Source: a virus
Lineage: Duplodnaviria > Caudoviricetes
Virus record (IMG/VR): IMGVR_UViG_3300028833_000053
Length of the DNA stretch: 64,000 bases
Direction: 5' to 3' (one strand)
How positions within the stretch are numbered: the first letter of the stretch is position 1; each line of letters opens with the position of its first letter. The notes beneath the pieces are model-generated. The model did no database searches. It had not been told where the DNA came from and was given only the letters and a program-made list of their open reading frames with translations. Both the position numbers and the translations under genes were made by a program. Shown here one piece after another: positions 36,993 through 52,115 of this stretch.

Positions 36993-37336
36993 AAATTTCC
37001 CAACATAAAATATTTTTCGTAACGCATATCGGATTTTCTCTTGATTTGCGTAAATATCCTTTGATGAAATGATGGAAGATTGGTTTTTCCACTTTATTTC
37101 TGACGCGAAAAGCTGTATAATTGAAAACGACATGAAGCATTGCAATACATATTGTGGATCAAGTTATTCCGCATCCCAAGTTTGGGGCGCGGAGAATGGA
37201 TCCATTTTGTTTGGCAACGCCGACCGTCGAGTGATCCTTCCCGCGCTGGAAAAAGAAGCAAAGTGGAATAGGAAGAAGAGGTCTACCATCATCTGAAGCG
37301 AAGAGAAGTTCAAGATAGACATAGGAAAGCAAGGAA

Positions 37337-37378
37337 GATGGGATGACCTGGAAGGAAAAAGGTCATCCCAAAATTTTT
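37337..37378 (+). terminator. Intrinsic terminator before the RNA region
   Basis: TGGGATGACC/GGTCATCCCA stem + T tract. Confidence 0.6.
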
Positions 37379-37401
37379 CTGAAAAATATTTTGAAACCCC
37401 C

Positions 37402-37562
37402 TTTACTTTGGAAACCGGATGTGATATACTGTGTGTGTTCTCTGCGAGAGGAAGGCTGATGAAACGAAGCCACCTCTGGCAGGTGAACGCGAGAGCCTGA
37501 GAAGCTGGGTAGAACCAGTGAGAAAGGCATCGTTCTTTGACAATTGAATGTTTTGACGTTTG
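37402..37562 (+). promoter_or_regulatory. RNA-operon promoter P1 + boxA + processing-stem leader
   Basis: TTTACT-17-TATACT; GTTCTTTGACAATTGAA at 37532; 37544-37562 complementary to 51986-52004. Confidence 0.7.
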
Positions 37563-37679
37563 GTTGTTCCCCCGCAAGGGGGAATGAACCAAAGCGATAA
37601 AGGAAAGACTAGGCTTTGTTGTGCGAGTCTCCCCTTTGGCGGCGAACGTCCAGAGGTCTAAAGCAAACATCCTTGCTAT

Positions 37680-37754
37680 CACGGTGTAGCAAAATGGTCT
37701 TGCAACGGACTTTTAATCCGTGAGATGCGGGTTCGAGTCCCGTCACCGTGACCA
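37680..37754 (+). tRNA. tRNA-Lys(TTT)
   Basis: Cloverleaf; ACGGA-CTTTTAA-TCCGT; CCA. Confidence 0.9.
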
Positions 37755-37803
37755 AATCAAGTGAAACGCCTAAAAACTTTTTTCAGAATTTTCCGAAACC
37801 CCC

Positions 37804-37942
37804 TTGCTTTTGGGGAACGGATATGGTATACTGTGTGTGTTGACGCGAAACAAGGTTTCCACGCGAAACAAGGTTTCCATCAACGCCGCTCTTTGAAGGT
37901 TGCGCGAGCAACCGGCAAGAACAAAGCTCTTTGACAACTGAA
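37804..37942 (+). promoter_or_regulatory. Promoter P2 + 18-nt tandem repeat + two boxA-like motifs
   Basis: TTGCTT-17-TATACT; ACGCGAAACAAGGTTTCC x2; GCTCTTTGA at 37888 and 37926. Confidence 0.65.
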
Positions 37943-38197
37943 TGATTCAATGTAGGAAAGACTGTTCCGCTTGGCGGAACATTCATCACGCAAGTCACCC
38001 CTTGGAGGAAACTCATAAGAGAACCTTGGGTCTAGCGCGGATGGTTCTACGATTTCAAACGATTCTTAAATTGGGCCGAAGCATCGGGCCCAAGCCAACG
38101 CGAGGCGATCAGTCCTTATCCACTGGCGTGGTTGCATACGAATGTGTGCAATGCGGGTTCGACTCCTGCGGTGGGATAGATGCTCCAATTTCAAGAT

Positions 38198-38273
38198 TGC
38201 GGGACGGTGCATCGGTTGCATATCGGGTTCATACCCCGAAGATGGTTGGGTTCGACTCCCACTCCCGCTACCA
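38198..38273 (+). tRNA. Initiator tRNA-fMet(CAT)
   Basis: 1:72 mismatch; GGG/CCC anticodon stem; CCA. Confidence 0.9.
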
Positions 38274-38881
38274 ATTTGGAATGACGACGTGAAGTTCTCT
38301 GGCAAGAGACGCGAACATACTGGACCGATAGTTCCCCAGAACGGGTCAAAGTTCATGATACTGAAGGTATGGGCGTTCCAATTCCATTTGAATCAAAGGT
38401 AAGGCGAATTTGCTCTGTGGTGTAAGCAAACACACCTCCTGACAATAGGAGGAATTGGCCTGCGATTGGTCTGGAGCAACCGTGGTATGAAAAATCCACA
38501 CCTCATATTAAAGGACAAAACGTCATTTGGAGTAATTGACCAGTTGGCGCCGAGAATATGATAGATTGCCTTTGAGAACGACCTTTCAAGGTCGTAAAGA
38601 ACGACCTTTTCAATTTGCGCAAAAGCCCAGACGTGGGCAAGGTTGTACGGTGAAGTACGTTATACCTGCGTTATAAAGGACATGAGCATCCGGACGATGC
38701 CGCCCCGAGAGTAAAATGGGGAAAGACCAGGGGTTCAACTCCCACATGTCCCAGCGAAATTTCAAATTGGTTGCGTTGCGCAACCTTGACGCGAATGGAA
38801 GCTGAAGAAGGTTTGAAATCGTAAGTTCAAATAGCGTTCAGCCCTTGGTCCGATTCCAAGGCGCGTCTTTACAATTTAGAT

Positions 38882-38969
38882 TCGGCAATACCCGAGTTGG
38901 TAGCAGGGGAGGGACTGTTAATCCCTTGGCGAAAGCCCGTCGCTGGTTCGAGTCCAGCTTGCCGAGCCA
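38882..38969 (+). tRNA. tRNA-Asn(GTT), long variable arm
   Basis: AGGGA-CTGTTAA-TCCCT; GGC-GAAA-GCC arm; CCA. Confidence 0.85.
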
Positions 38970-38976
38970 TTTCAAT

Positions 38977-39052
38977 GCTCCAGTAGCTCAATCGGCAGAG
39001 CATGGGACTCTTAATCCCGGGGTTGTGGGTCCGATTCCCACCTGGAGTACCA
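38977..39052 (+). tRNA. tRNA-Lys(CTT)
   Basis: Cloverleaf; CCA. Confidence 0.92.
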
Positions 39053-39055
39053 ATT

Positions 39056-39144
39056 TCCTTGCTGTTGCTGTTGGTTCAAATCCAACCTGGTCTGAAAGGC
39101 ATTGCCAGGACCGGAAAGCGATGCGATTGGTTTCAACAGCGGGA
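39056..39144 (+). ncRNA. Circularly permuted tRNA-like (YrlA-like) RNA
   Basis: Closing stem GCTGTTG/CAACAGC; order T arm, closed acceptor-like hairpin, D-like arm. Confidence 0.5.
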
Positions 39145-39403
39145 TTCTTTTCTTCAAACATTGAACGCCACACCTTTCGTATTAGTGGCTAGTACGCCCC
39201 GTGGCAGACGGGGAGAGGTTGGTTCGAGTCCAACAAGGTTAAAGCTGGCTTTCAATGTTTCGCGCCTTGCATCGGGCGCAGGTTGGCAAGGTGCGTGTTC
39301 TAGTTCGCGCAGTCCCAACTGAAACGTCCATATACGGCCTGAGTGATGATCACCACTCGTGGGTTCAACTCCCACTATGGAAGTAGATGCGGCCTTTCTA
39401 AAT

Positions 39404-39482
39404 GGTTCCGTAGACCAATTTTGGCAGAGTCACATGCTTGAGGTGCATGACAGTATGGGTTCGAGTCCCATCGGAACTACCA
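39404..39482 (+). tRNA. tRNA-Leu(GAG), short variable loop
   Basis: CATGC-TTGAGGT-GCATG; CCA. Confidence 0.85.
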
Positions 39483-39484
39483 AT

Positions 39485-39561
39485 GGATGCGTAGCCCAAC
39501 GGCAGGAGGCAAATGACTCAAAATCATTACAGTGTGGGTCCGAATCCCACCGCATCTACCA
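39485..39561 (+). tRNA. tRNA-Leu(CAA), short variable loop
   Basis: AATGA-CTCAAAA-TCATT; CCA. Confidence 0.88.
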
Positions 39562-39570
39562 TTTCAAACT

Positions 39571-39649
39571 GGTGGCGTAGCCCAATTTGGCAGGAGGCAG
39601 CGGTTTCAAACTCCGCGTAGTATGGGTTCGAGTCCCTTCGCCACTACCA
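39571..39649 (+). tRNA. tRNA-Leu(CAA) second copy, short variable loop
   Basis: GCGGT-TTCAAAC-TCCGC; CCA. Confidence 0.78.
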
Positions 39650-39667
39650 CTTTGTATAATTGGATGT

Positions 39668-39958
39668 ATGGAAAACGATATTGTTCTTGACTTCATACAT
39701 CGCAGGTTTCCAGACGATTGCCGTTGGCTCAATGGAAACTGCTACTTCTTCGCGTTGATTCTCCGCGAACGTTTCCCATGCGGGAAAATCCTCTATGATG
39801 TCATAGACGGGCATTTCGTTTGCGAGATTGATGGAAAGAAGTACGATTGGTCTGGAATCGTGAATGAATCTGGTGAACACCAATGGGTTGAATGGGACAG
39901 ATTCTACGAATACGACAATCTTCAATTTGAACGTGTGGTGAAAGACTGCACGATGTGA
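39668..39958 (+). CDS. Hypothetical protein (GNCY.FA..L motif)
   Basis: TATAAT directly upstream; near-leaderless. Confidence 0.7.
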   Translation: MENDIVLDFIHRRFPDDCRWLNGNCYFFALILRERFPCGKILYDVIDGHFVCEIDGKKYDWSGIVNESGEHQWVEWDRFYEYDNLQFERVVKDCTM

Positions 39959-39995
39959 AACATCGCATGATGCAGAGCATCACACGTTATGACAT

Positions 39996-40074
39996 GGCGG
40001 TGTAGCCCAACTTGGCAGGAGGCAGCACGTTCAGGGCGTGTGTAGTGTGGGTCCGAATCCCACCATCGCTACCA
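39996..40074 (+). tRNA. tRNA-Leu(CAG), short variable loop
   Basis: GCACG-TTCAGGG-CGTGT; CCA. Confidence 0.85.
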
Positions 40075-40076
40075 AT

Positions 40077-40154
40077 CAGTGAGTAGCTCAGTCTGGCTAG
40101 AGTGCCGGGCCCGGAACCCGTAGGTCGCAGGTTCAAATCCTGCCTCACTGACCA
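40077..40154 (+). tRNA. tRNA-Pro(CGG)
   Basis: Cloverleaf; unusual C33; CCA. Confidence 0.8.
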
Positions 40155-40169
40155 TTTTCAATTTCACAA

Positions 40170-40244
40170 GTCGGGATAGCATAATGGTGGTGCTAGGGAA
40201 TCATAATCCCTCGGTTGTGGGTTCGAGTCCCTCTCCCGACACCA
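40170..40244 (+). tRNA. tRNA-Met or Ile2 (CAT)
   Basis: AGGGA-ATCATAA-TCCCT; CCA. Confidence 0.85.
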
Positions 40245-40253
40245 AATTTCAAT

Positions 40254-40329
40254 TGGAGTATGGCGAAGTGGTTAACGCACTGGTCTGATACACCAGCATA
40301 CGATGGTTCGATCCCATCTACTCCAACCA
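40254..40329 (+). tRNA. tRNA-Ile(GAT)
   Basis: CTGGT-CTGATAC-ACCAG; CCA. Confidence 0.9.
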
Positions 40330-40339
40330 ATTTTCAAAA

Positions 40340-40427
40340 CGTCAGGTGCAGCTGAGTAGCGAAGGCCTGTGACTGTAAATCACAGACATTGGAAACAACG
40401 TAGGTGCGAGTCCTACCCTGACGACCA
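40340..40427 (+). tRNA. tRNA-Tyr(GTA) with C1:G72
   Basis: TGTGA-CTGTAAA-TCACA; long variable arm; CCA. Confidence 0.85.
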
Positions 40428-40476
40428 ATTTCAAGTAGTTCATTAGATTTACACTGTAAATCTTGTAAATACTATT

Positions 40477-41151
40477 ATGAACTACAATAAGATTTATAAT
40501 GATTTGATTTAGAAGCGAATTGATCATCCTCTTGAACGAACCTATGACGCTTCAATTGAGGAACATCATATTATTCCTCGATCATTTGGTGGTACAAATG
40601 ACAAGACTAATTTGGTCAATCTGACTTTACGAGAACACTTTGTTGCGCATCTCCTTCTATGGCGCATAAACAAAAATGATTATGTGAAATGTGGTAAAAT
40701 GATAAGTGCGTTATTCTTTATGATGAAGAGGGCGCATAAACTATCATCCAGATTATATGAGAAATTGAGAGTAATGGGTGGTTCTTGGAACGGAAGACAC
40801 CATTCTATTGAAGTGCGTGAAAAAATAAGAATGTCAATGACACCATCTGAATCTTCAAATCCCAGAGTTTGGGTATGCAAAAATGGCATGGTAAAATACA
40901 TACCCAAGGAAAAATTGAATGACTTCTTATAGAAGGGGTGGATTAGAGGTAGAATGGGATATAAACCAAGGAAAAATAAATAGGGAACGATAATAGAAGA
41001 TGGCATAACAAAGGCATTCTATAAAACATGTGAAGGTAGGGTTTATATTCATAACGAAATCTTGAAATAGACCAAACGAGTAATAAAAGACGATGTTTCT
41101 GAATTTTAGAGAAGTGGCTGGAAACTCGGAAGAAAAATATACAACAAATAA
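40477..41151 (+). CDS. HNH homing endonuclease (Mob-like), 224 aa, 5 in-frame TAG
   Basis: MNYNKIY...EEHHIIPRSFGG...NLV.LT.REHF.AH; NUMOD3-like segment; GW..GR repeats; TAG at 40510, 40930, 40981, 41068 and 41107. Confidence 0.85.
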
Positions 41152-41154
41152 TTT

Positions 41155-41331
41155 GAGAGGTAGCAGAATTGGCAGACGCGCCACCGCTGATGGTGGTAGC
41201 CCTTGACGATAACAAGCGGTTTTAGAAAACTGAACGCCCATGGGTTTTCGCTAGTTGGCAATGAAGGTAGCTCCTTCTGGTTCTATCCAACTGTTCGTCC
41301 TTGGCAGTGGTGGTTCAAGTCCACCCCTCTC
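41155..41331 (+). ncRNA. tRNA-like RNA with 112-nt variable-arm insertion
   Basis: GAGAGG/CCTCTC acceptor; D arm; CCACC/GGTGG; T arm GGTGG-TTCAAGT-CCACC; no CCA. Confidence 0.6.
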
Positions 41332-41472
41332 TTTCACTTTCCAAATGGCTTGATACTCAGGTAATTGATCCTGGCCCGTGCGTAAAACGGGTTCCCTGAC
41401 ATAATGAGTTGATGCATCGCTCGTTGGGGAGATAGCGGAGTAGATACCCGCAAGACAGCCACCAATTTCAAT

Positions 41473-41546
41473 GGACGGGTCGTAGAACGGTAATACTCCT
41501 GATTGAAGCTCAGGCATTGTTGGTTCGACTCCAACCTCGTCCACCA
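41473..41546 (+). tRNA. tRNA-Phe(GAA)
   Basis: CCTGA-TTGAAGC-TCAGG; CCA. Confidence 0.9.
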
Positions 41547-41552
41547 ATTTAC

Positions 41553-41626
41553 GGGCCGATAGTTCAACGGTAGAACGTCTCAATGGCATTGAGAAGATGG
41601 GAGTTCAATTCTCCCCGTGTCCACCA
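41553..41626 (+). tRNA. tRNA-Ala(GGC)
   Basis: G3:U70; CCA. Confidence 0.85.
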
Positions 41627-41770
41627 ATCTATGTTCAAGACCGCTTGACAGGGAGTTCCTTGGTTCGCAAGAACCTGAAAGCATAATACAGTAAATCCAT
41701 TGGCAGCAATCGCAAGGCAACGCGAGGTCGACCGCGTCCGAGGATGATGGAGGTCAAGAACGCCATTTAT

Positions 41771-41844
41771 GGGCCGCTAGTTCAGTGGTAGAACATCTGT
41801 TTCGCAGACAGAGGACTTGGGTTCGATTCCCAACGTGTCCACCA
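41771..41844 (+). tRNA. tRNA-Ala(CGC)
   Basis: G3:U70; TCTGT-TTCGCAG-ACAGA; CCA. Confidence 0.85.
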
Positions 41845-41887
41845 TTTATGGTACGTATCGCACAATGCGATACTTCCACCAATTTCA

Positions 41888-42133
41888 TGTCGCATAGTTC
41901 AAACCAAAAGAGAACAAAGGGACGATTGCATTGGGAACGATGCATTGTTAGTGTCACAAAAGCCGGGTTGGTTTCTTGCAGAAACCCTCCTGGTGAGGCA
42001 GGTGACCGCGTAGGGGTTGTTGATTGAGGTTGTCTGGAACTGCAAGAGCCCGGGCAATCTGACAAGAGCCTTCAACAGTAAGTCCCGGAATCCCCAAGAG
42101 ACAGTGGCGGTGAGACCCCGTCCGGCGACACCA
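41888..42133 (+). ncRNA. tRNA-like RNA with 158-nt domain replacing the anticodon loop
   Basis: GTCGC/GCGAC-ACCA; D stem GTTC/GAAC; GGGAC/GTCCC; T-like arm. Confidence 0.55.
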
Positions 42134-42349
42134 ATTTTGGCAATATGATGTAATCCCCGAAGGAGTTAAAGGAAGTGAATTCACCTTGCTCCGAAACAAG
42201 GGACATGGTTTTCTGACTCTAGATAGGGAAACCATATGAGCATGGCAGCAGGTGAGCTGTTTATTCCGTGGAAATCGGATGTTGCCGACAACTTCAATTT
42301 GGTCAAGCACCTGACCTGGGGCGAGGAAGTACAACTCAATTCCCCAAAA

Positions 42350-42421
42350 ACGTCTGTAGTTCAATGGTAGAAGCATTGGGTCAGAAAAACCCAAGATGTT
42401 GGTTCGACCCCAACTGGACGT
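42350..42421 (+). tRNA. Atypical tRNA-Phe-like gene lacking CCA
   Basis: Cloverleaf with TTGGGT-CAGAAAA-ACCCAA. Confidence 0.5.
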
Positions 42422-42772
42422 AAGGTGCCCGGTTTAGTTCCCTAGTACATTCATATTGGGGATTAGTTGGTTCCTGGCACACCATAAGACCAGGTGGTTT
42501 GTGTGTTTCATGGGTCAGCGGCATTGGCTTTGTAGATGTCCACTCTCCAACATCAACTTCCCAGACAGCTAATGGGAATGTCAAAAACACTCAGCTCTTT
42601 CAGAAGTTGACATCCATTCAAGTCGGAACTTTCCACCATAGTTAACAAATGACAAACTGGCTACGGTTGCATGTTCACAACCATGGAGCAAAGTTCATTG
42701 GGTTTCTTTGAATCTAATCCTGCCCAATGAAGCCAGAGGGCTGGGCCCGATGATGCCAACTTCTTTTTCAAT

Positions 42773-42850
42773 GGGACTGTGGCAAAATTGGATAACGCGC
42801 TTCGCTACGAACGAAGAGAATTGCGAGTTCGAGTCTCGCCAGTCCTACCA
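42773..42850 (+). tRNA. tRNA-Arg(ACG)
   Basis: CTTCG-CTACGAA-CGAAG; CCA. Confidence 0.92.
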
Positions 42851-42948
42851 TTTCAAGCCTTGCATTGCGTGAAGATGTTCTTTGGTGAGGGGAATTTAGC
42901 AGTGGATTTTCCAATACCACTTGCGTGAATGCAAGCAACCATTTCAAT

Positions 42949-43020
42949 AGGCGAATGATGTCAATGGTAGCATGAAGGTCTCCAAAACCTTATGTGGTGG
43001 TCCGAATCCACCTTTGCCTG
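42949..43020 (+). tRNA. tRNA-Trp(CCA), no encoded CCA end
   Basis: AAGGT-CTCCAAA-ACCTT. Confidence 0.85.
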
Positions 43021-43030
43021 AACTTTCAAT

Positions 43031-43109
43031 GGGCGAGTTCTCGATATTGGTACTGGGCGTGGTCTGCAAAACCTCGATAATGTGGGTTCGATTCCCACCT
43101 CGCTCTCCA
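43031..43109 (+). tRNA. tRNA-Cys(GCA)
   Basis: CTGCAAA loop; U73; CCA. Confidence 0.8.
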
Positions 43110-43382
43110 AATGACTTGTTCATTTATCCAGCTTGCAAGATGGTTCGGGCAATTCCATGACTAATGTTCTTACTCTGGTGAGAAGTAAGACGATAGGCAA
43201 AAATGGTTCGATTCCCCCTCGGAACATTAGTTGAATATTGCCAAGTTTTTCAATTTGTGCCACAAAGAAAACTCACTTCACACAGGAGGATCGTGTGACC
43301 ATCAATGATGGGTAGAGATTTTGCGCAACGTCTCTACATATTATGTTGAGCGGTAAGAGTCCGTATGTCCTCCTCCATTTAT

Positions 43383-43456
43383 GGCTCTGTAGATTAGAAG
43401 CAGATCGCCTCCCTCTCAAGGAGGAGAACACGGCGCGATACCGTGCAGAGCTGCCA
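43383..43456 (+). tRNA. tRNA-Glu(CTC)
   Basis: CCTCC-CTCTCAA-GGAGG; CCA. Confidence 0.88.
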
Positions 43457-43463
43457 TTTCAAC

Positions 43464-43538
43464 GGCCCTGTAGATTAAAAGCTAGATCGGGTGGTTTTCA
43501 TCCACCAGAACACGGAGCGTTACCGTGCAGGGCTGCCA
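43464..43538 (+). tRNA. tRNA-Glu(TTC)
   Basis: GGTGG-TTTTCAT-CCACC; CCA. Confidence 0.88.
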
Positions 43539-43539
43539 A

Positions 43540-43615
43540 CGTCCTATAGGTCAAACGCATAGACCGCATCTCTCCTAAAGATGACATCCCCGTTGGATTC
43601 GGGGTAGGACGACCA
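43540..43615 (+). tRNA. tRNA-Arg(CCT)
   Basis: CATCT-CTCCTAA-AGATG; CCA. Confidence 0.85.
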
Positions 43616-43734
43616 ACTTAATGTCCCATTCCATCATGGTTTACGGCCAACATAGGTCTGGGACAATTTTTCGTATAATTGTAAATAGGTATGACGTTAC
43701 CGTAAATAACGTCTCTAAACTAAAGGCAAAAATT

Positions 43735-44508
43735 ATGATATGCGAACAATGTAGAAACGAGCATGATGGCTCGTATGGGAGCGGAAGGTTCTGCTCAAAA
43801 AAGTGTAGGTATCAGTACCACATAAAAAACGAACAATCACCACTTGGTACTTGGACTTGTAGATATTGCGGTCTGGTATTTGAGACAAAACATAAATTGT
43901 GGGAACACTATCATTCAGTCCACGAATCAAGTCTCGGAAAACCACATAACAAAGGTGGACGAGCTTGGAATAGAGGACTGACAAAGGAAACCGATGATAG
44001 AGTTAAATTAGGCACTGAAACTTATAAAGCACGAATAAAAAGTGGTGAAATAACCCCATCATTTCTTGGGAGACATCATTCCGAAGAAACAAAAAGGAAA
44101 ATGTCAGACTTCCATAGTCATGCTACTTTTCAACGTGTATGTAAGAAAACACAACCTTATACAAAAAAGGATGGAACCGTTGTGATGTTGGATTCGTCAT
44201 GGGAAATCAAATTGGCTGAAATATTGGATGACCTTAATATAAATTGGATTCGTCCAAAACCTGTAGAGTGGTATGACCAATCTGGAAAACTTCACCACTA
44301 TTTTTCGGACTTCTTTTTAGAAGACTACAATTTGTATCTTGACCCAAAGAACGATTATTGTTTTGTTGCCCAAGCAGAGAAAATAGAGTATGTAAGAACT
44401 CATTATGACAATGTTCTTTTCATGCACAAAGACCAAGTAACAAAGGAATTTGTTTTGAATTTGATAAATGAACGAACAACTTTACACGTTGGGACGGAAC
44501 TTGTATAA
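43735..44508 (+). CDS. Zn-finger + NUMOD3 + PD-(D/E)xK-like putative homing endonuclease
   Basis: CEQC..EHDGSYGSGRFCS..C; C2H2; HHSEETKRKMS; DSSWE; YFSDF...LDPK. Confidence 0.75.
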   Translation: MICEQCRNEHDGSYGSGRFCSKKCRYQYHIKNEQSPLGTWTCRYCGLVFETKHKLWEHYHSVHESSLGKPHNKGGRAWNRGLTKETDDRVKLGTETYKARIKSGEITPSFLGRHHSEETKRKMSDFHSHATFQRVCKKTQPYTKKDGTVVMLDSSWEIKLAEILDDLNINWIRPKPVEWYDQSGKLHHYFSDFFLEDYNLYLDPKNDYCFVAQAEKIEYVRTHYDNVLFMHKDQVTKEFVLNLINERTTLHVGTELV

Positions 44509-44530
44509 TTGGATATGTGATCTTTGACAG
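44481..44530 (+). promoter_or_regulatory. Promoter P3 + boxA-like motif
   Basis: TTTACA-17-TATAAT; GATCTTTGACA at 44519. Confidence 0.65.
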
Positions 44531-44535
44531 ATGAT

Positions 44536-44887
44536 TATGTGAATCAGATGGGGAGTGAAACCCAGTATGCTTAATGCTTCAACGGCTGCCTTGTGTGGTG
44601 TAATTGTCAGCCATATGCCATCTTTGAATGGCGGGCCCATAGGAAACCACTGGGCGTGTAGGTTAGAGTCCTGCCACAAGGTGCATACCCGAAATAAAAT
44701 CTACCCGAAATCCACGTCAAACACATTGAGGTTTCGCTATTGGGGGCTGGAATGCCCCGGTGGACACGTAGGATGAATGATAAATGGGATATGTTGAAAA
44801 TTCGTGGGATGTCCCGCGATGGTTGCCTACCTGCCGTGGTGTAATAGCCATGTGAGCGGGGCAACTCTCAGTCGGATGGTTCACATA
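44536..44887 (+). ncRNA. ~350-nt structured RNA with embedded tRNA-like module
   Basis: Closing helix TATGTGAATCA/TGGTTCACATA; cloverleaf at 44588-44685. Confidence 0.5.
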
Positions 44888-45085
44888 TAGAAGTTCCCAA
44901 CCTAATGGGACGACTTCTGCTGCGGTGGAATGTTCGAGGGGTGTGATGCTTATAATTTTCCCAGTATGAAACATCACTTGTGCCAATCCTGCACAATGGG
45001 CTAGGTTCACCAACGAACCGGGTATGTCCGCCAGAAATACAGCTGGTTCTGGTTACGAAGGGCATAATGGATTTTGATTTTCAAG

Positions 45086-45162
45086 CGGAGTGTAGCGCAG
45101 CCTGGTAGCGCACTTGCCTTGGGCGCAAGCCGTCGGGGGTTCAAATCCCTCCACTCCGACCA
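45086..45162 (+). tRNA. tRNA-Pro(TGG)
   Basis: Canonical cloverleaf; CCA. Confidence 0.92.
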
Positions 45163-45652
45163 ATTTGTTGACCGTAGGGAAAAAATCTAAACTCCCGCCC
45201 CGTGAGAGGGTGGCGAAACGGACCTTGAACTGCAGCAAGACAATCCGCCAGCTCTGGTGGTGGAAATCCACCCGGTCGACGCATTTATGGGAGCATGAAA
45301 CCGAACTGGAAAGGAATCTGCGGCAAGTGGATGGGTGGAATCCCCAATGTGGGTCCGAATCCCACTGCTTCCATCATTTCAAACGAATTCTCTTTGTCCC
45401 TGTATTCTCTCTCGGTGAGCAGCAAATAGGGAGGCTTGACGGCAAGCCTAAAGGTGAAAACGGTTACGCTGGAGGTGTTAAACAGGCGAACACATAAAAC
45501 TTCCGGAAGATGTTACCAGCCTCTCACCAAGTAACCTGCGAGTCCATGACATTCAAGGCTCATAACCTTGTGAAACCGGAACGCCGTATTCTTCAATTTC
45601 CGTATAATTGGTTTGTGACGCTGAGCAATTCAGCGAAAGGATAAAAGCAAAC

Positions 45653-46243
45653 ATGGCAAAAGCAAACAAGACGAAAAACGACGACAAGGTTCTTCTCTAC
45701 GAGAACACTGGAAAGAAGGGAAAGAAAACCCTAATCTCCGAAATGGTGAAACTCTCAAATCCGGTCACGGAGACTGCGAGAAAGATTATGGCTCTTCTTT
45801 CATATGACTCCAGGGTTCTCACGGAGTTTGACTTCAACAAGCACACATTGTGGGTGTACGTCAGCGATCCTGACGTGTGCGAGGCTTACAAATTCTTCCT
45901 CAGGCGCAAGTACGATTTGGGCGGTCTCACGCTGGACGTGAAGCTGATTGCGACCTATCAGGGGGAGGCCGAGGAAGTCGGAGAGGCAACCTACAAGGTA
46001 ACGGATGACGAGAAGCTTCGTCTCTTCAAGCTCCTGTTCAAGGATGGTCTTGAGCCGAAGTATCAGAGCGCGGTTGACCAGTACAACACACGTTGGGACT
46101 TCTTTGAGTTCCCGCCAATGGCTCTTACCTATCAGGCCGACGACCTTCAGAACATCAAGGGCTTCAAGTCTGTTCTTCTCACGGACGCCGTGAAGGAAAC
46201 GTTTGACGTTGGTTTTTACCATATCTCCTCATTGGCTTTTTGA
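45653..46243 (+). CDS. Hypothetical protein
   Basis: 196 aa; AAGGA RBS; phage-like codon usage. Confidence 0.8.
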   Translation: MAKANKTKNDDKVLLYENTGKKGKKTLISEMVKLSNPVTETARKIMALLSYDSRVLTEFDFNKHTLWVYVSDPDVCEAYKFFLRRKYDLGGLTLDVKLIATYQGEAEEVGEATYKVTDDEKLRLFKLLFKDGLEPKYQSAVDQYNTRWDFFEFPPMALTYQADDLQNIKGFKSVLLTDAVKETFDVGFYHISSLAF

Positions 46244-46316
46244 TAGGCCGATGATGGATGGAAATAAGGGGACGTTCTGCCATTCGGAGGAAATGGCAGA
46301 ACTTTCATTTTACATT

Positions 46317-46410
46317 GGAAGCGTAACCCTAAAAGGAAGGGAGTGACCTCGAAAGTCACGAGTAGCGGGGGAAACTTCGCGTGGGTTTGCAAGACACCCC
46401 GCTTCCGCCA
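46317..46410 (+). tRNA. tRNA-Ser(CGA)
   Basis: Long arm; G73; CCA; atypical T arm. Confidence 0.82.
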
Positions 46411-46421
46411 AAAGATTTCAT

Positions 46422-46513
46422 GGAGGCGTAAGCCTAAAGGAAAGGCAGCGGCTTTGAACACCGCTAGTAGCGTCTAAAAACGTGTGGGGTTTCAAGATCC
46501 TCCGCCTCCGCCA
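46422..46513 (+). tRNA. tRNA-Ser(TGA)
   Basis: Long arm; G73; CCA. Confidence 0.85.
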
Positions 46514-46518
46514 TTTAT

Positions 46519-46614
46519 GGAGCAATAAGCCTAATCTGGTAAGGCCGCGGTTTGCTAAACCGCCAGTAGGGGTCGCAAGGTCTCGTCCTGATTCGAGTTC
46601 AGGTTGCTCCGCCA
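46519..46614 (+). tRNA. tRNA-Ser(GCT)
   Basis: Long arm; G73; CCA. Confidence 0.88.
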
Positions 46615-46619
46615 TTTAT

Positions 46620-46712
46620 GGATAGGTGCTAGAATTGGCAAACAGCTTCGCTTGGAAAGCGAATGGGCGGGCGAAAGCTCCCATGGGAGGTCGGGACTCC
46701 CCCTATCCGCCA
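46620..46712 (+). tRNA. tRNA-Ser(GGA)
   Basis: Long arm; G73; CCA. Confidence 0.82.
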
Positions 46713-46719
46713 TTTAGAT

Positions 46720-46797
46720 GTTGGCATTAGTTCAGTCTGGTAGAACGGTGGATTGTGATTCCATATGTCCTGGGTTCAAATCCCAGATGTCAACCCA
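46720..46797 (+). tRNA. tRNA-His(GTG)
   Basis: G-1:C73; CCA. Confidence 0.92.
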
Positions 46798-46798
46798 A

Positions 46799-46876
46799 CG
46801 TTTCCTCGCCCAATTTGGTTAGGGCATCTCCTTCACATGGAGAGGGTTCTGGGTTCGAGTCCCAGGGAAACGACCA
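46799..46876 (+). tRNA. tRNA-Val(CAC)
   Basis: TCTCC-TTCACAT-GGAGA; CCA. Confidence 0.9.
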
Positions 46877-46882
46877 TTTGAA

Positions 46883-46958
46883 TCCCGCATGGCGTAATGG
46901 TTAGCGCATCACCTTGACATGGTGGTGGTTAGTGGTTCGAGTCCACTTGCGGGAACCA
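46883..46958 (+). tRNA. tRNA-Val(GAC)
   Basis: TCACC-TTGACAT-GGTGG; CCA. Confidence 0.9.
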
Positions 46959-46959
46959 C

Positions 46960-47063
46960 TTTACATTTGGATGTGATTAGTGTATAATTATGTATGCTCT
47001 TTGAGGGATACCAAGGTATCCAGAAGGTGCTTTGTTCCTTGACAACTGAATGTTTTGACGTTT
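46960..47063 (+). promoter_or_regulatory. Promoter P4 + two boxA-like motifs + processing-stem leader
   Basis: TTTACA-17-TATAAT; TGCTCTTTGA at 46995; GTTCCTTGACAACTGAA at 47034; TGAATGTTTTGACGTTT at 47047-47063. Confidence 0.7.
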
Positions 47064-47234
47064 AAGAAGGGAGACCCTTGAACCGCCCCTTCGTATACGA
47101 AAGTGAGGTGGATATACCACCAAGCATGGTTCAAGAATGAGTCACACGCAACGGACAAGGCTTTGGCGGCGAAATGGCAACAAAGTAACCGGTGGGATGC
47201 GCGTGGTTGACCAGTGTGACTTCGCTATTTCAAT

Positions 47235-47308
47235 GGGGTATTGGTGAAAAGGAATCACAGATGTCTGTCTAACATCAGTAGGGGGATCGTTACCCCCATA
47301 CCCCGCCA
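47235..47308 (+). tRNA. tRNA-Asp(GTC)
   Basis: GATGT-CTGTCTA-ACATC; G73; CCA. Confidence 0.88.
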
Positions 47309-47889
47309 TTTCAAGTATCTTGTAAAGCAAGGTAAACTCAGAAAGGTTCGCTACCACATGAGTCGGTTTTTGGTTTGTTTAGGTGCTCTGCTAGGCTTGC
47401 CCGGTTCGCCTTATTGCAAGAGGTGATTCAAGAGACTGCAAAACGGGATTAAGCACCACCACCAAGGTGTTCCCATGGAACAACGAGGCCGCGATGGACA
47501 GTCTGCGAAAAACAAACTTGTGATTTGTTCCTAAACCCCCGAATAGATTTCGCGGAGTGGACACAATAAGCGTTCGGGGTTTTGCATAATGCAGCATAGG
47601 ATTCAGGGGTCGGCTTGTTCTTTCCTGGTCCGAAAACGCGGTGGCTTTGCTTGGTACCGGGCATCCACAAGCAAACTCCGCTTCATCAATTTCATTTTTC
47701 AATCCGATATAAACATGCAGTGCAGAATGGTGATTGCGTAAGCAGCCAACCACAAGTAAAGTACACTTGGTTGACGGGTTCAGACAGAAAACCCAGAAAA
47801 TGCAACGAGTACGGGAAGAGTACGTCTGGTGTTGCAAGCCCACGGATACAAGATCGAAACACGTTGTGGTCGGATTGAAACCCTTTCAT

Positions 47890-47963
47890 TGGGGATTGTT
47901 GTAGCGGCAGCAAATCGGTTTTTGATACCGAGAGTGAACGTTCGACCCGTTCATCCCCAGCCA
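47890..47963 (+). tRNA. tRNA-Gln(TTG)
   Basis: U1:A72; CCA. Confidence 0.88.
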
Positions 47964-47973
47964 AATGCTTTAT

Positions 47974-48048
47974 TGTTCCCTGGGATAATGGCAGTCCAGC
48001 TCCCTCTGAAGGAGTAAGGTGAAAGTTCGACTCTTTCGGGAACAACCA
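47974..48048 (+). tRNA. tRNA-Gln(CTG)
   Basis: GCTCC-CTCTGAA-GGAGT; CCA. Confidence 0.88.
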
Positions 48049-48153
48049 ATTTCGGAATCCAGCGCACGTTGGATGGGTGTTCCAACCACCAAGGAGGTGC
48101 AAGCGACGGCTGGAGTGGTTCGAGTCCACCGCCTGGTTCCTTTTCAATTTCAT

Positions 48154-48228
48154 GCATCCGTGGGACATCAGCCGTCCGTCAGCCTTCCAAGCTGAAGTAG
48201 GCCAGGGCAGCACTGGTCGGATGCTCCA
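48154..48228 (+). tRNA. tRNA-Gly(TCC)
   Basis: TCAGC-CTTCCAA-GCTGA; U73; atypical T loop. Confidence 0.85.
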
Positions 48229-48482
48229 TTTTCAATCGTTGGAAAGCTCAGGTACCGGGCTTCCATCGAGAAAGCATGTGGGTAGGGCAGTTTCCCACGC
48301 AAAAGTTAGGGTAAGAGTCCTCAAATGACTGCCGCCAATTTCAATGTTAGGGTCGCTCTCTAATAGAAAACTATTCCTGATGCCGGGGTCAGTAAGACAC
48401 ACAAGGGAAACGAATGCAGGATATCATGCTCGTTTCAGATAATGTCAATAGGGGTAAGAGTCCTCATCCCATTTATTTCAAT

Positions 48483-48557
48483 GCGAACGTGGTACATCAG
48501 CAGTACACCAATCTGCCAGGTTGGATTAAGTGGGGGCAGCACCCATCGTTCGCTCCA
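48483..48557 (+). tRNA. tRNA-Gly(GCC)
   Basis: CCAAT-CTGCCAG-GTTGG; U73; atypical T loop. Confidence 0.85.
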
Positions 48558-49624
48558 ATTTTCAAGTTCCCAATCTTTGTGGGATTCTGATTGGGTTGCC
48601 TGTGGGCGTGAAAAAGTCTTAAGAACCCCGATGGTTTCCAACGATGGTTCTTGAGTACATTCTTGTGGATAATTGAGTGAAGTCTATGGCTTGTCTGGTC
48701 AAACTCAAATGACTGAACAAACATAGTCCTCGAATGGAAAAGTCTCCTGAGTTGGAAACTTTCACTTTGACGTATGATTGAATTTGTTGCAGCAAGCGCA
48801 GACCGGTGAGTCCGTATTTCACAATATGTTCAATGTTATTTGAACCCGGGTAGCACCCAAAATACGAAACTCCATATCCAATGAACCTTGGGCTACGGCT
48901 GGCAAGGGCAGTTGGAAGTAGTTGCCGGTTGCGTCCCATGAAGACGGTGTACAATCGCCCGAGGATGGAAACGATGTCACTATGCAGTGGGTTGGTGGGT
49001 AGGAAGAAGAATGGGCCGCGCCACCGTAAAACGGGTCCACCATTTCATGTGCAAGAAAAGCTACTTGCGCAGAAGACAGTACCCCATGTGAGTGGGGCTA
49101 GTGGTGTAGAAGAGGTGGATGCATTTGACCAGCGCTGGGATCGCCACTGATACTTCATGACATGACTACGGTAAAAGTCCGCATTCTCACACCGATTTCG
49201 GCGTTCATCGCACAATGGCTAGACACAAATAGTTCAAAAAGGCAGAATACACGAAGAGTGAGACAGTGGTCCGAATCCCGATGTGTTGGTTGAAACCAAA
49301 GTGCGGGAATTCATGAACGCCATTTGCAAGCCAACGGCACGTAGACGAATCGGGCGTTGGTGAAGTCCCAAGAACGTGTTGGGCTGAGCTGGGGGAACAT
49401 CAAACCCAGGGAACAACGGAGCCTACTCCGCGTAACGCCATGTCAAAGGATGTGCCATACGTGAAACAAAAACCTGTTCGCAGGTTATGGTTGTTGGGAA
49501 ACTGGCAGAGAACCGCGTAAAACAACTTCTGCTACCATTTTTCGGAAAACGGAAAGTTGGGATTCATCCGCCAACTAGGGATTCCGTAAAACCGGAAACC
49601 TCGATGTAGGAATCATCAGGATGA

Positions 49625-49756
49625 ACGCGCATAATTGGGTTGTTGCCGGCGTACTGCGCATAAGTTGGCAACAGTAAGAATCCAATCGGGGGTCCGAATC
49701 CCTCCATACCACAGCCTGTGGTATCGTGGCAGAGGCTGGCTGAATGCACTGCGCGT
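49625..49756 (+). ncRNA. Circularly permuted tRNA-like (YrlA-like) domain
   Basis: ACGCGCA/TGCGCGT closing stem; long variable hairpin; T arm; ATACCACA-GCC-TGTGGTAT closed acceptor; D arm. Confidence 0.7.
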
Positions 49757-50002
49757 GAGGAAACATGGGAAATTCAAAGTCAAAATGTCTAAACGGCGGA
49801 GAGAGTTCATTTTGAGCGGGAAGACAACCCGTTGTTTTGGTTCTCCTCCCGTGTTTCCTTCGATTTCATTTTGCGCAAAACCTCGTTGATGGCGCATGTC
49901 CCTAACAAGGCATCTTAATGTGTTGGCCGTGCATGGCATAATCCCTGGGTTGAATAAATCTTGCCACTGTGAAAACTGCCATTTCAACGAGACCCTTTTA
50001 TT

Positions 50003-50078
50003 GGACCGATATGTCAATGGTCAGACGAGGAGTCTCATAATCTCTAGGTTGCAGGTTCGAGTCCTGCTCGGTCCACCA
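50003..50078 (+). tRNA. tRNA-Ile2 or Met (CAT)
   Basis: CTCATAA loop; CCA. Confidence 0.85.
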
Positions 50079-50088
50079 ATTTTTCAAT

Positions 50089-50181
50089 GGGAGCGTAGCG
50101 GCCCCGTCTTATGAGCGGGAGATACCGTAGTGGTTCTTGAGATAACTTCAATCGTGGGTTCAAATCCTACCGCTCCTACCA
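50089..50181 (+). tRNA. D-arm-less tRNA-Ile(TAT)-like gene with long variable region
   Basis: GGGAGCG/CGCTCCT-ACCA; 7-nt linker; CCCGT-CTTATGA-GCGGG; T arm. Confidence 0.6.
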
Positions 50182-50189
50182 ATTTCAAT

Positions 50190-50270
50190 GGGTCCGTGGC
50201 TCGAGTGTGATAAAGGCAACCGGTTTGCATCCGGTACAAATAGTGGGTTTAACTCCCATCGGATCCACCA
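50190..50270 (+). tRNA. tRNA-Ala(TGC)
   Basis: G3:U70; CCA. Confidence 0.88.
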
Positions 50271-50370
50271 ATTTTAGAACCTGTAGCTCAGAAACTTAGA
50301 GCAAGGGAAACGGCCGGCTTAGTTGTCCCGCGCGAAGGTTAAAGCCCTTCCAGGTTCTGCATTTCAAAAA

Positions 50371-50461
50371 GCCACAGTCGCATAGCCTGGTCGATTGCAC
50401 TGGTTTTGTAAACCAGTATCCGATAAGGGTCGCGTCCGTTCAAATCGGACCTGTGGCTCCA
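50371..50461 (+). tRNA. tRNA-Thr(TGT), long variable arm
   Basis: CTGGT-TTTGTAA-ACCAG; CCA. Confidence 0.85.
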
Positions 50462-50467
50462 GTTTTT

Positions 50468-50558
50468 GCTGAGGTCGTATAGTCTGGTCGATTACAATGG
50501 CTTCGTAAGCCATTATGCTTCTGGCATCACGTCAGTTCAAATCTGACCCTCAGCTCCA
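50468..50558 (+). tRNA. tRNA-Thr(CGT), long variable arm
   Basis: ATGGC-TTCGTAA-GCCAT; CCA. Confidence 0.85.
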
Positions 50559-50562
50559 TTTG

Positions 50563-50645
50563 GCTAGGGTGGCTGAGAGACCGAAAGCGCGTCCATGGTA
50601 AGGACGTATTCCACATCGTCAGTTTGAATCTGACCCCTAGCTCCA
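50563..50645 (+). tRNA. tRNA-Thr(GGT), enlarged variable loop
   Basis: CGTCC-ATGGTAA-GGACG; CCA. Confidence 0.85.
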
Positions 50646-50654
50646 ATTTGAATT

Positions 50655-50684
50655 AGACCATAGGTGACAGCCTATGGTCTTTTC
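50655..50684 (+). terminator. Hairpin after the last tRNA
   Basis: AGACCATAGG/CCTATGGTCT + TTT. Confidence 0.55.
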
Positions 50685-50762
50685 ATTAAATTTATGTATA
50701 ATTTATAGTAAATACTTTTATGGAGTCACTGTCATGACTTCAACAACAAAAAGGTAAAAACA

Positions 50763-51545
50763 ATGAAATGTGAAAAATGCGGTAACGAACATGATGGTTC
50801 TTATGGAACAGGTAGATTTTGTTCAGAAAGTTGCAAACAAGCATATGTTGCTGGTAAAGTAAAACATAGAAAAAGTGGATTTGCAATAAATAATCCAAAC
50901 CCAAAAGCAAAGTATGGAACGTGGAAATGCCGACTTTGCGGAATCATTTTCAATACACGGGCAACCTTAAAACAACATATGAATTTGGAACATCCATATG
51001 ACAAATCTCATGCGTGGAATTATGGAAAGACAAAAGAATCAGATAAACGTCTAAAAATCGCATCGGAAAAACTTTCAATAAACATGAAACGTTATTTGGC
51101 TTCGGGAAAAGTACGCAAACACATATGGAATGATTCTGAACGTAAAGCCCAATCTGAACGAGCAAAGAAAAACAAAATTGGAGGCTATCATAAACATGGT
51201 GGACGTGGAAAAAGAGGATGGTATAAAGGATATTGGTGCGATAGTTCATGGGAACTTGCTTATGTCATATACAATCTTGAACACGATATACATTTTGTCA
51301 GAAACAGAGTTGGATTTGAATATGAATATGGAGGAATGATTCGGAAATACTATCCCGATTATATTCTTGATGATGGAACTTATGTCGAAGTAAAAGGATA
51401 TGAAGACGAAAAGGTTAAAGTAAAACACAAAACATTTATTTCATCTGGACACATATTAAATGTCATAGGAAAAGAGGAGATAAAACCATACCTTCAATAC
51501 GTCATCGAGAAATATGGAAAGGACTTTACAAGGCTATATGAATGA
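50763..51545 (+). CDS. Zn-finger + PD-(D/E)xK (TnsA-like) putative homing endonuclease, paralog of 43735
   Basis: CEKCGNEHDGSYGTGRFCS; DSSWE; YYPDY...VEVKG. Confidence 0.8.
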   Translation: MKCEKCGNEHDGSYGTGRFCSESCKQAYVAGKVKHRKSGFAINNPNPKAKYGTWKCRLCGIIFNTRATLKQHMNLEHPYDKSHAWNYGKTKESDKRLKIASEKLSINMKRYLASGKVRKHIWNDSERKAQSERAKKNKIGGYHKHGGRGKRGWYKGYWCDSSWELAYVIYNLEHDIHFVRNRVGFEYEYGGMIRKYYPDYILDDGTYVEVKGYEDEKVKVKHKTFISSGHILNVIGKEEIKPYLQYVIEKYGKDFTRLYE

Positions 51546-51558
51546 TGTATAATATCAT

Positions 51559-51780
51559 ATGACAAACAAAGAATTAATAGCCAAACTTTCTGAATTTCCC
51601 GAAGATTCCGAAGTTGATTTCTGTCTGTTTTCAAACTTGACACCAAGGCGTTGTGACGTTAAGGATAACCACGTCATGATTAGGCGGTCGCCTCATACGG
51701 GATTGCTCTACATCATGCTTGACCTTGAACCCTATTGGGAAGAGGACATCAAGCGTTCCTTGGCAAGGAATTTTAATTAG
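51559..51780 (+). CDS. Small hypothetical protein (ends at TAG)
   Basis: Leaderless after TTTACA-17-TATAAT at 51524; MTNKELIAKL..FP.D. Confidence 0.6.
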   Translation: MTNKELIAKLSEFPEDSEVDFCLFSNLTPRRCDVKDNHVMIRRSPHTGLLYIMLDLEPYWEEDIKRSLARNFN

Positions 51781-52037
51781 CTTCCCAATGCGCGTTCGGA
51801 CGTCTAGCCACGTTTCTGCAGAATCTGTGGCGGCTCCGTCCAACTGCCTTTGGGGTGTGTCCACGCAGGTTAGCGGGTTGGCGTGGACTTCATACGGTCA
51901 GCACAGACTCCCAAATCCAACAAACCCAACATAGATGAGTGTGCGTTCTATGCTTGGCTGGATCCAAAAACCCGCGACCATTTATCAAACGTCAAAACAT
52001 TCAAGCGAAACGGCGCCGGAAAACCGGCGCCGTTTTT
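51781..52037 (+). ncRNA. Structured RNA with trailer helix strand and terminator
   Basis: GCGGGTT/AACCCGC pseudoknot potential; CAAACGTCAAAACATTCAA at 51986-52004; AAACGGCGCCGG/CCGGCGCCGTTT terminator. Confidence 0.5.
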
Positions 52038-52115
52038 GTTGTTGTCCACCATCTGTCAGCAAACTGAATTCAATTTGGAACTTTACGGTTTTCCTTCTTT
52101 CTGGTATAATATGGT

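Follow-up and report, generated by a model that had tools for sequence, protein, structure and literature searches.

Ribosomal-type boxA leaders and a long-range leader-trailer complementarity in the tRNA array of a large phage

How does a phage transcribe a long array of transfer RNA (tRNA) genes, and how is the end of the transcript brought together with its beginning? This question is raised by a tRNA block of about 14.6 kb in the viral record IMGVR_UViG_3300028833_000053 (Caudoviricetes). The stretch that we analyzed, hereafter the window, comprises 64,000 nucleotides (nt) and is the minus strand of positions 297268-361267 of the complete genome of a jumbo phage, one contig of 433,895 bp that has 46.6% G+C and direct repeats at its ends; all positions below are those of the window. 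ARAGORN finds 34 tRNA genes between 37680 and 50645, every one on the plus strand, and Rfam adds about four. Because boxA motifs of the kind used in ribosomal RNA (rrn) operons follow each promoter of the block, and because bases just after boxA can pair with the far end of the block, the phage probably borrows the host machinery for rRNA transcription and folding to make its tRNAs. Our analysis favors rrn-type antitermination combined with a leader-trailer helix formed in cis, a reading to which we assign a probability of roughly 55%.

The preliminary description of this DNA had proposed four sigma-70 promoters, each followed by boxA-like motifs, and both parts were borne out. A consensus scan recovered three of the four promoters, the unlisted one at 37804 being read by eye, and GNTCTTTGA-type motifs follow all of them (at 37532; 37888 and 37927; 44519; 46996 and 47034). 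The motifs are of the GYTCTTTGA type, occur once or twice per leader 10-104 nt past the -10 element, and fit GNTC(T/C)TTGA in six copies. The two copies of leader 2, like those of leader 4, flank a hairpin; the remaining two leaders have other hairpins or none. The boxA motifs are specific to the RNA promoters of the tRNA block. Indeed, CTTTGA lies at most 130 nt from 6 of 86 other promoter-like sites genome-wide, which is the chance rate, and the same regular expression finds it in this range at 3 of 3 RNA promoters of the array, to which the promoter at 37804 is added by eye.

The second line of evidence is a long-range complementarity. Positions 37544-37562 in leader 1 (19 nt) and 47047-47063 in leader 4 (17 nt) are exact reverse complements of 51986-52004, a trailer site 2 nt before the final terminator (52007-52036), so that the first description of this pairing and of its location was accurate. 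The corresponding helices would span 14.4 kb (leader 1) and 4.9 kb (leader 4), the former with a computed duplex energy of about -25 kcal/mol; no complement of the trailer was found in leader 2. RNAduplex-style energies were useless as a statistic, with background windows as low as the true pair, and exact-helix counts were used because these energies failed to separate the two. The inverted-repeat search that had been suggested as a check recovered the pair. Among the 32 maximal perfect inverted repeats of at least 19 nt in the genome, the leader 1-trailer pair is the only one with arms within 20 kb, and its complementarity is therefore unlikely to have arisen by chance; the other 31 pairs have arms 21.6-272 kb apart and mostly represent repeated promoter or gene families. 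Moreover, the whole genome contains the 17-mer just three times, twice in direct and once in inverted orientation. Leaders 1 and 4 are 100% identical over the 17-mer, against 4 differences in the neighboring boxA region (family D18), as a shared pairing partner would impose.

This geometry is that of rrn operons, in which boxA bound to NusB is proposed to keep the adjoining stretch of leader near the RNA exit channel up to the time when the trailer is made (PMC10250234). For comparison, 16S loci were taken from 61 genomes in one Clostridia-class sample. The boxA motifs in the leaders and spacers of these loci are of the CTTTGA[AC]AA type, one of which, CTTGAAAATTGAATAG, comes near the phage version, and the bases directly after boxA, sometimes together with boxA itself, pair perfectly over 12-18 nt with the post-16S spacer. 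The preliminary description had proposed a comparison with the rrn leader and spacer of the host; made with this Clostridia-class sample, the comparison gave agreement in both boxA type and helix position. The published boxA consensus of gamma-proteobacteria is GYTCTTTAANA (PMC5725501), and a CTTTGA variant occurs elsewhere. A 17-mer boxA pattern matched 1 of 301 Clostridia-class genomes, a count that is uninformative since most of these are metagenome assemblies without rrn operons.

The phage leaders share with the rrn leader (boxB-boxA-boxC; NusA, NusB, NusE, NusG, SuhB, and S4) a boxA after a sigma-70 promoter, a hairpin beside it, and structured untranslated RNA downstream (PMC10250234, PMC5725501), but they serve a tRNA array instead of rRNA, number four in 14.6 kb, and in two cases have boxA flanking the hairpin. 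Similarly, the phage helix has its 5' strand directly after boxA and its 3' strand at the end of the unit, like the pre-16S and pre-23S stalks. Unlike these, it measures 19-21 bp, spans 14.4 or 4.9 kb, is not kept in the nearest relatives, and uses one trailer for two leaders. It does not directly bracket one mature RNA; since it encloses about 38 tRNAs, open reading frames (ORFs), internal promoters, and hairpins, we consider that it would work like an rrn helix without being a member of that family. Recruitment of host Nus factors via boxA would also be reminiscent of the lambda nut sites, as is the boxA-then-hairpin order of leaders 2 and 4. In contrast to nut, the phage motif is an rrn-type boxA and serves a non-coding RNA operon, and no N-like protein turned up, none having been sought. 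In E. coli, the rrn-type boxA works without a phage protein.

The same design recurs in a distant phage. G003, a 291-kb phage that has only two flank proteins in common with the window phage (41% and 28% identity), carries a 35-tRNA array with two leaders composed, in this order, of a promoter, a GNRA-loop hairpin, and boxA. Directly after boxA, 17 nt in one leader and 16 nt in the other show exact complementarity to a site lying 3 nt beyond the last tRNA. The 16-mer is present in only three places in G003, two forward and one reverse. The G003 helix agrees with that of the window in its boxA-proximal half and departs from it, on both strands, in the distal one.

Recurrence extends beyond these two phages. 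We searched viral contigs with a 17-nt boxA pattern, kept sites with enough downstream sequence, and looked farther downstream for perfect complements to the 40 nt that follow boxA. Complements of at least 12 nt were present at 23 of 99 non-redundant sites, and ones of at least 14 nt at 12 of 99; the counts at these two thresholds were 2 and 0 for the reversed leader, 2 and 1 for the 40 nt upstream, and 4 and 0 for the segment from +60 to +100. The helices mostly start 7-12 nt from CTTTGA, or else include boxA. In the window the offset from the start of CTTTGA is 9-10 nt, the same as in 14 other phage units.

A variant of this arrangement was seen in many small phage or prophage contigs (L186, L194, L206, L215, L261, L266, and L188). 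Here, boxA is followed by 13-18 nt able to pair perfectly with an intrinsic terminator located 0.3-2 kb farther on, namely with its 5' arm, and the units enclose one or two unrelated small ORFs. The leader resembles the 3' arm of the terminator but complements the 5' arm better, so that either the leader-trailer helix or the terminator hairpin can form in these contigs, not both, and the arrangement could be a boxA-tethered long-range antiterminator.

The boxA leaders themselves recur in three relatives of the phage, G001 (418 kb, the same phage as L107), G002, and L106. In these, synteny of the tRNA arrays is maintained, and the leaders show a promoter, then boxA, and often a hairpin and a second boxA; the small ORF beside the array has 79-85% protein identity in L107 and L106. 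The full promoter-boxA-hairpin-boxA order is maintained in G001/L107 and L106 with differing hairpin sequences, and 3 of the 6 pairs of the consensus leader hairpin are compensatory (four leaders from three phages). Promoter-boxA leaders thus lie in the tRNA arrays of G001/L107, G002, L106, and G003. In G004 and L032 (G306), boxA is found at or within a tRNA array, with a clear promoter in L032 only.

Taken together, these features suggest the following pathway. Host sigma-70 RNA polymerase would transcribe the block from the four promoters, yielding nascent leaders with one or two rrn-type boxA motifs and, in leaders 2 and 4, a boxB-like hairpin between them. We infer that host NusB/NusE and other Nus factors would load on boxA to form an rrn-type antitermination complex, which could carry the polymerase through kilobases of untranslated structured RNA and weak internal hairpins, as far as position 52004. 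The tRNAs at 46422-46958 have no promoter of their own and lie 3' of the terminator-like hairpin at 46274-46302; read-through is therefore required there. Since boxA is proposed to stay bound to the polymerase, the 19 nt (leader 1) or 17 nt (leader 4) behind it would be held at the RNA exit and could pair in vivo with the trailer as it emerges 14.4 or 4.9 kb later, giving nested loops as in pre-rRNA. The resulting duplex of 19-21 bp, formed 2 nt before the final terminator, would be a plausible substrate for cleavage by host RNase III. Genes for NusB, NusG, and RNase III are missing from the phage genome, and these proteins would have to come from the host; together with promoters that resemble host sigma-70 sites, this points to a direct dependence on host factors.

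Several observations weigh against this reading, first among them the phylogenetic distribution of the helix. G001 has neither the 17-mer nor a comparable helix (all leaders, over the array and 3 kb beyond), and no helix was found in G002 (one leader, whole record) or in L106 (three leaders, within 10 kb, in part of the record). Conservation in relatives, which the preliminary description had named as part of its refuting condition, therefore fails for the nearest ones, G001, G002 (one leader), and the partial L106, and a complementarity of differing sequence reappears in the distant G003. Complements of 11 and 12 nt to one G001 leader were not counted, as they overlap a common inter-tRNA spacer motif and are near chance. 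Contigs encoding the identical small protein match the window sequence with at most one mismatch, so that the strain copies of the lineage offer no variation from which covariation could be read. In E. coli, rrn antitermination acts mainly on Rho-dependent terminators and only weakly on intrinsic ones. A duplex of 19-21 bp is close to the minimum commonly given for RNase III substrates. The enterobacterial pre-16S leader-trailer helix is longer than that of the window, at 25-40 bp (PMC10250234). An exact 19-mer across boxA and leader was matched six times among 185,579 species genomes, always in coding or unrelated sequence and never in an rrn leader, indicating that the stalk was not copied from a known host leader; the exact 17-mer gave nine unrelated matches in viral contigs, none in a boxA or promoter context. 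Finally, the trailer is set apart from the last tRNA by two protein ORFs, an apparent promoter, and a terminator-like hairpin that is conserved. The continuous polycistrons of about 14.6 and 5 kb envisaged at the outset would have to extend across terminator-like hairpins, endonuclease-like ORFs, and internal promoters that break up the unit. As for rrn-like antitermination and processing, the specificity and conservation of boxA, the rrn geometry, and the design of G003 speak in its favor, and the absence of the helix from the nearest relatives speaks against it.

The strong promoter at 51525 is a possible source of a separate RNA carrying the trailer, which leads to an alternative in which pairing occurs in trans. 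The RNA of a 73-amino-acid (aa) ORF, with a 3' untranslated region (3'UTR) of about 255 nt that ends in the anti-leader sequence, would anneal to nascent leaders 1 and 4, immediately behind boxA, and direct their cleavage or alter antitermination, providing feedback on tRNA production. We consider this unlikely. The promoter (11/12, 5 nt before the ATG) is kept in G001/L107, whereas the small ORF of L106 has tRNAs on both sides and no promoter, and is therefore part of a polycistron. The window tRNAs are separated from the trailer by a hairpin with a T-run (50655-50680), a TATAAT element, and the 260-aa and 73-aa ORFs, but the G003 complement, 3 nt after the last tRNA and without its own promoter, would be made only as part of the array RNA. 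A single trailer for two leaders suits action in trans, as does the prediction that the trailer strand, with a structured domain (z = -3.2) on one side of it and the terminator on the other, is itself free of pairing; an unpaired complementary segment beside a terminator hairpin, at the end of an mRNA with its own promoter, is reminiscent of 3'UTR-derived small RNAs. These differ, however, in that the target here would be a boxA-adjacent leader instead of a ribosome-binding site, and the G003 counterpart has no promoter. The boxA-adjacent geometry is that of the cis helices of rrn operons, and the published tethering model (PMC10250234) fits pairing in cis.

It could also be argued that the boxA leaders are functional and that recombination or template switching between leader copies recently gave rise to the 19-nt complement as a by-product, which would be missing from the relatives because it has no role. 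Its absence from G001, and the failure to find it in G002 or the part of L106 examined, agree with this view. So does the plasticity of the leaders, illustrated by the promoter and boxA that precede the conserved RNA at 48787 in G001 and L106 and are deleted in the window, and so does the fact that most other long inverted repeats of the genome are repeated families. Yet a copying event fits poorly with an identity that is perfect within the 19 nt and nonexistent outside on either side, with a trailer copy that excludes boxA, and with a 17-mer better kept between the two leaders than boxA is. The recurrence of the design in G003 and at 23 of 99 viral boxA sites is a further argument against a by-product, and we find this explanation improbable.

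There is a still smaller chance that the GYTCTTTGA motifs are not Nus-binding boxA at all but sites for a phage factor or -35-like TTGACA hexamers. Several copies do contain TTGACA; others (CTTTGAAGG or CTTTGAGGG) do not, and the -35 assignment was rejected in the lack of a usable -10 element 16-18 nt downstream. Furthermore, the motif equals the boxA of the sampled rrn leaders and spacers, and an exact 16-mer recurs in the tRNA arrays of unrelated phage contigs. A role at the DNA level, with the three exact copies (two direct, one inverted) as operator or recombination sites, for example for inversion of the 14.4-kb block, is very improbable, as the sequence is not palindromic, no recombinase gene was recognized in the block, where the ORFs resemble homing endonucleases, strain contigs are identical and in the same orientation, and the copies lie in transcribed leaders beside an RNA signal.

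Tethering in cis by an rrn-type complex may be of broader relevance. Nus/boxA antitermination and leader-trailer helices belong to the textbook picture of rRNA operons and are regarded as dedicated to rRNA, save in lambdoid phages and a few autoregulated genes (PMC5725501), and our full-text literature searches on boxA with phage tRNA arrays or operons, jumbo or huge phages, and leader-trailer helices returned only papers on rRNA, lambda, and Nus. We tentatively propose, at slightly less than even odds, that recruitment of the host rrn antitermination complex is general among large phages and widespread among small phages of Firmicutes. The complex would serve as an RNA-tethering chaperone, with boxA retaining the adjacent leader bases at the polymerase up to the synthesis of a complementary trailer kilobases away, which would close tRNA polycistrons or gene cassettes into loops and couple processing or termination to Nus availability. 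If so, a mechanism thought to be dedicated to ribosome biogenesis would extend to phage gene expression, the ends of phage RNA operons would have a sequence signature usable in metagenomes, and natural test cases of 5-14 kb would exist for the published boxA tethering of long-range RNA pairing. The use of both antitermination and the helix by phage tRNA arrays would explain how long untranslated arrays escape Rho and are correctly folded and processed.

Table 1. Positions of the promoters, leaders, helix strands, terminators, and ORFs of the tRNA block
Feature	Position	Strand	Remarks
Promoter P1	37402-37430	+	TTTACT-17-TATACT with TG; 9/12; conserved promoter class, CCCCCTTTAC upstream
boxA of leader 1	37532-37543	+	GTTCTTTGACAA
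Leader-1 helix strand	37544-37564	+	Directly after boxA, at the boxC position of rrn leaders; 19 nt perfect, 21 with one G-U
tRNA array	37680-50645	+	About 38 tRNA genes, structured RNA without family, and endonuclease-like ORFs
Promoter P2	37804-37832	+	TTGCTT-17-TATACT, extended -10; P1 paralogue (family D16)
Leader 2 module	37888-37938	+	boxA-1 37888-37896; hairpin with GCGA loop 37898-37913; boxA-2 37927-37938
ORFs with weak HNH, NUMOD3, or zinc-finger matches	40303-41151, 43621-44508, 50763-51545		Dispersed through tRNA array
Promoter P3 and boxA	44481-44530	+	11/12; boxA GATCTTTGACAG (44519-44530) at +10
ORF without family match	45608-46243		Within tRNA array
Terminator-like hairpin within unit	46274-46302	+	
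Promoter P4	46960-46988	+	TTTACA-17-TATAAT, 11/12
Leader 4 module	46996-47045	+	boxA-1 46996-47004; hairpin 47006-47021; boxA-2 GTTCCTTGACAA 47034-47045
Leader-4 helix strand	47047-47063	+	17 nt perfect complement of trailer; 22 nt at 91%
Terminator-like hairpin, T-run	50655-50680	+	Directly after last tRNA (50645); kept in G001; separates array and trailer
260-aa ORF	50763-51545	+	Weak zinc-finger matches
Strong promoter	51525-51553	+	11/12; 5 nt upstream of 73-aa ORF ATG; also in G001/L107
Conserved 73-aa ORF, no known family	51559-51780	+	Ends in TAG
Structured non-coding stretch	51781-51983	+	Fold z = -3.2 for 51781-52045
Trailer strand of helix	51984-52004	+	
Final intrinsic terminator	52007-52036	+	13 pairs, 9 G-C, T-run; strongest; 2 nt after trailer

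The remaining features of the block are listed in Table 1. The regions of P1 and P2 (37367-37439 and 37769-37841) form a 73-nt direct repeat with 75% identity, and the P1 promoter class is also present in G001 and G002. In this class, CCCCCTTTAC lies at -35 and GATATACT is followed by GTGTGTGTT. Related words covering the -10 element and the bases downstream of it (TATACTGTAGGTGTTCTGA) recur on both strands throughout the genome, and many of its long inverted repeats are due to them.

At the 3' end, the mRNA of the 73-aa ORF would be nearly leaderless, since its promoter ends 5 nt before the ATG. Read through its TAG, this ORF would extend to 186 aa (51559-52119) across the terminator and the next promoter; coding read-through was rejected on this ground, and the stretch was taken as non-coding. 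The upstream 260-aa ORF, for which only distant phage homologues and no close relatives were found, is probably a mobile, endonuclease-type insertion, and no comparably long ORF is present in the small-ORF region of L106. Past the post-array hairpin, at 50680-50720, a TATAAT precedes GTAAATAC; this element is conserved in G001 and may be a phage-specific (late?) promoter for the endonuclease-like ORF.

The few real ORFs within the block resemble homing endonucleases, with NUMOD3, HNH (TAG read as Gln), and zinc-finger matches; that at 40303-41151 has seven in-frame TAG codons. Array content varies among the relatives at the sites of the endonuclease-like ORFs (40303-41151, 43621-44508, 45608-46243, and 50763-51545). 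Neither megablast of the region nor tblastn of a 904-aa window protein gave a match among the INPHARED phages.

Over 37300-52100, Rfam with gathering and E-value thresholds returned tRNAs only, the rest being noise. At 44588-44684, ARAGORN reports a 97-nt tRNA-like gene with an abnormal two-base anticodon, and the motif upstream of it, CUUAAUGCUUCAACGGC, is kept in G001 and L106. A non-coding element located after boxA and upstream of tRNA-Met and tRNA-Lys (37950-38197 and 37610-37670) consists of GGAAAGACUG, a hairpin, CCCUUGGAGG, and then GGGUCUAG. It is common to the window and G001 (L042 minus strand, leaders La and Lb) and has no match in Rfam. A second conserved RNA without assignment, at 48760-49400, begins with UUGCAGCAAGCGCAGACCGG and is common to three phages (G001 leader Le; L106 8537-8800). 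G001 and L106 provide it with a separate promoter and boxA; the window has this promoter deleted, with CACTTTGACG left.

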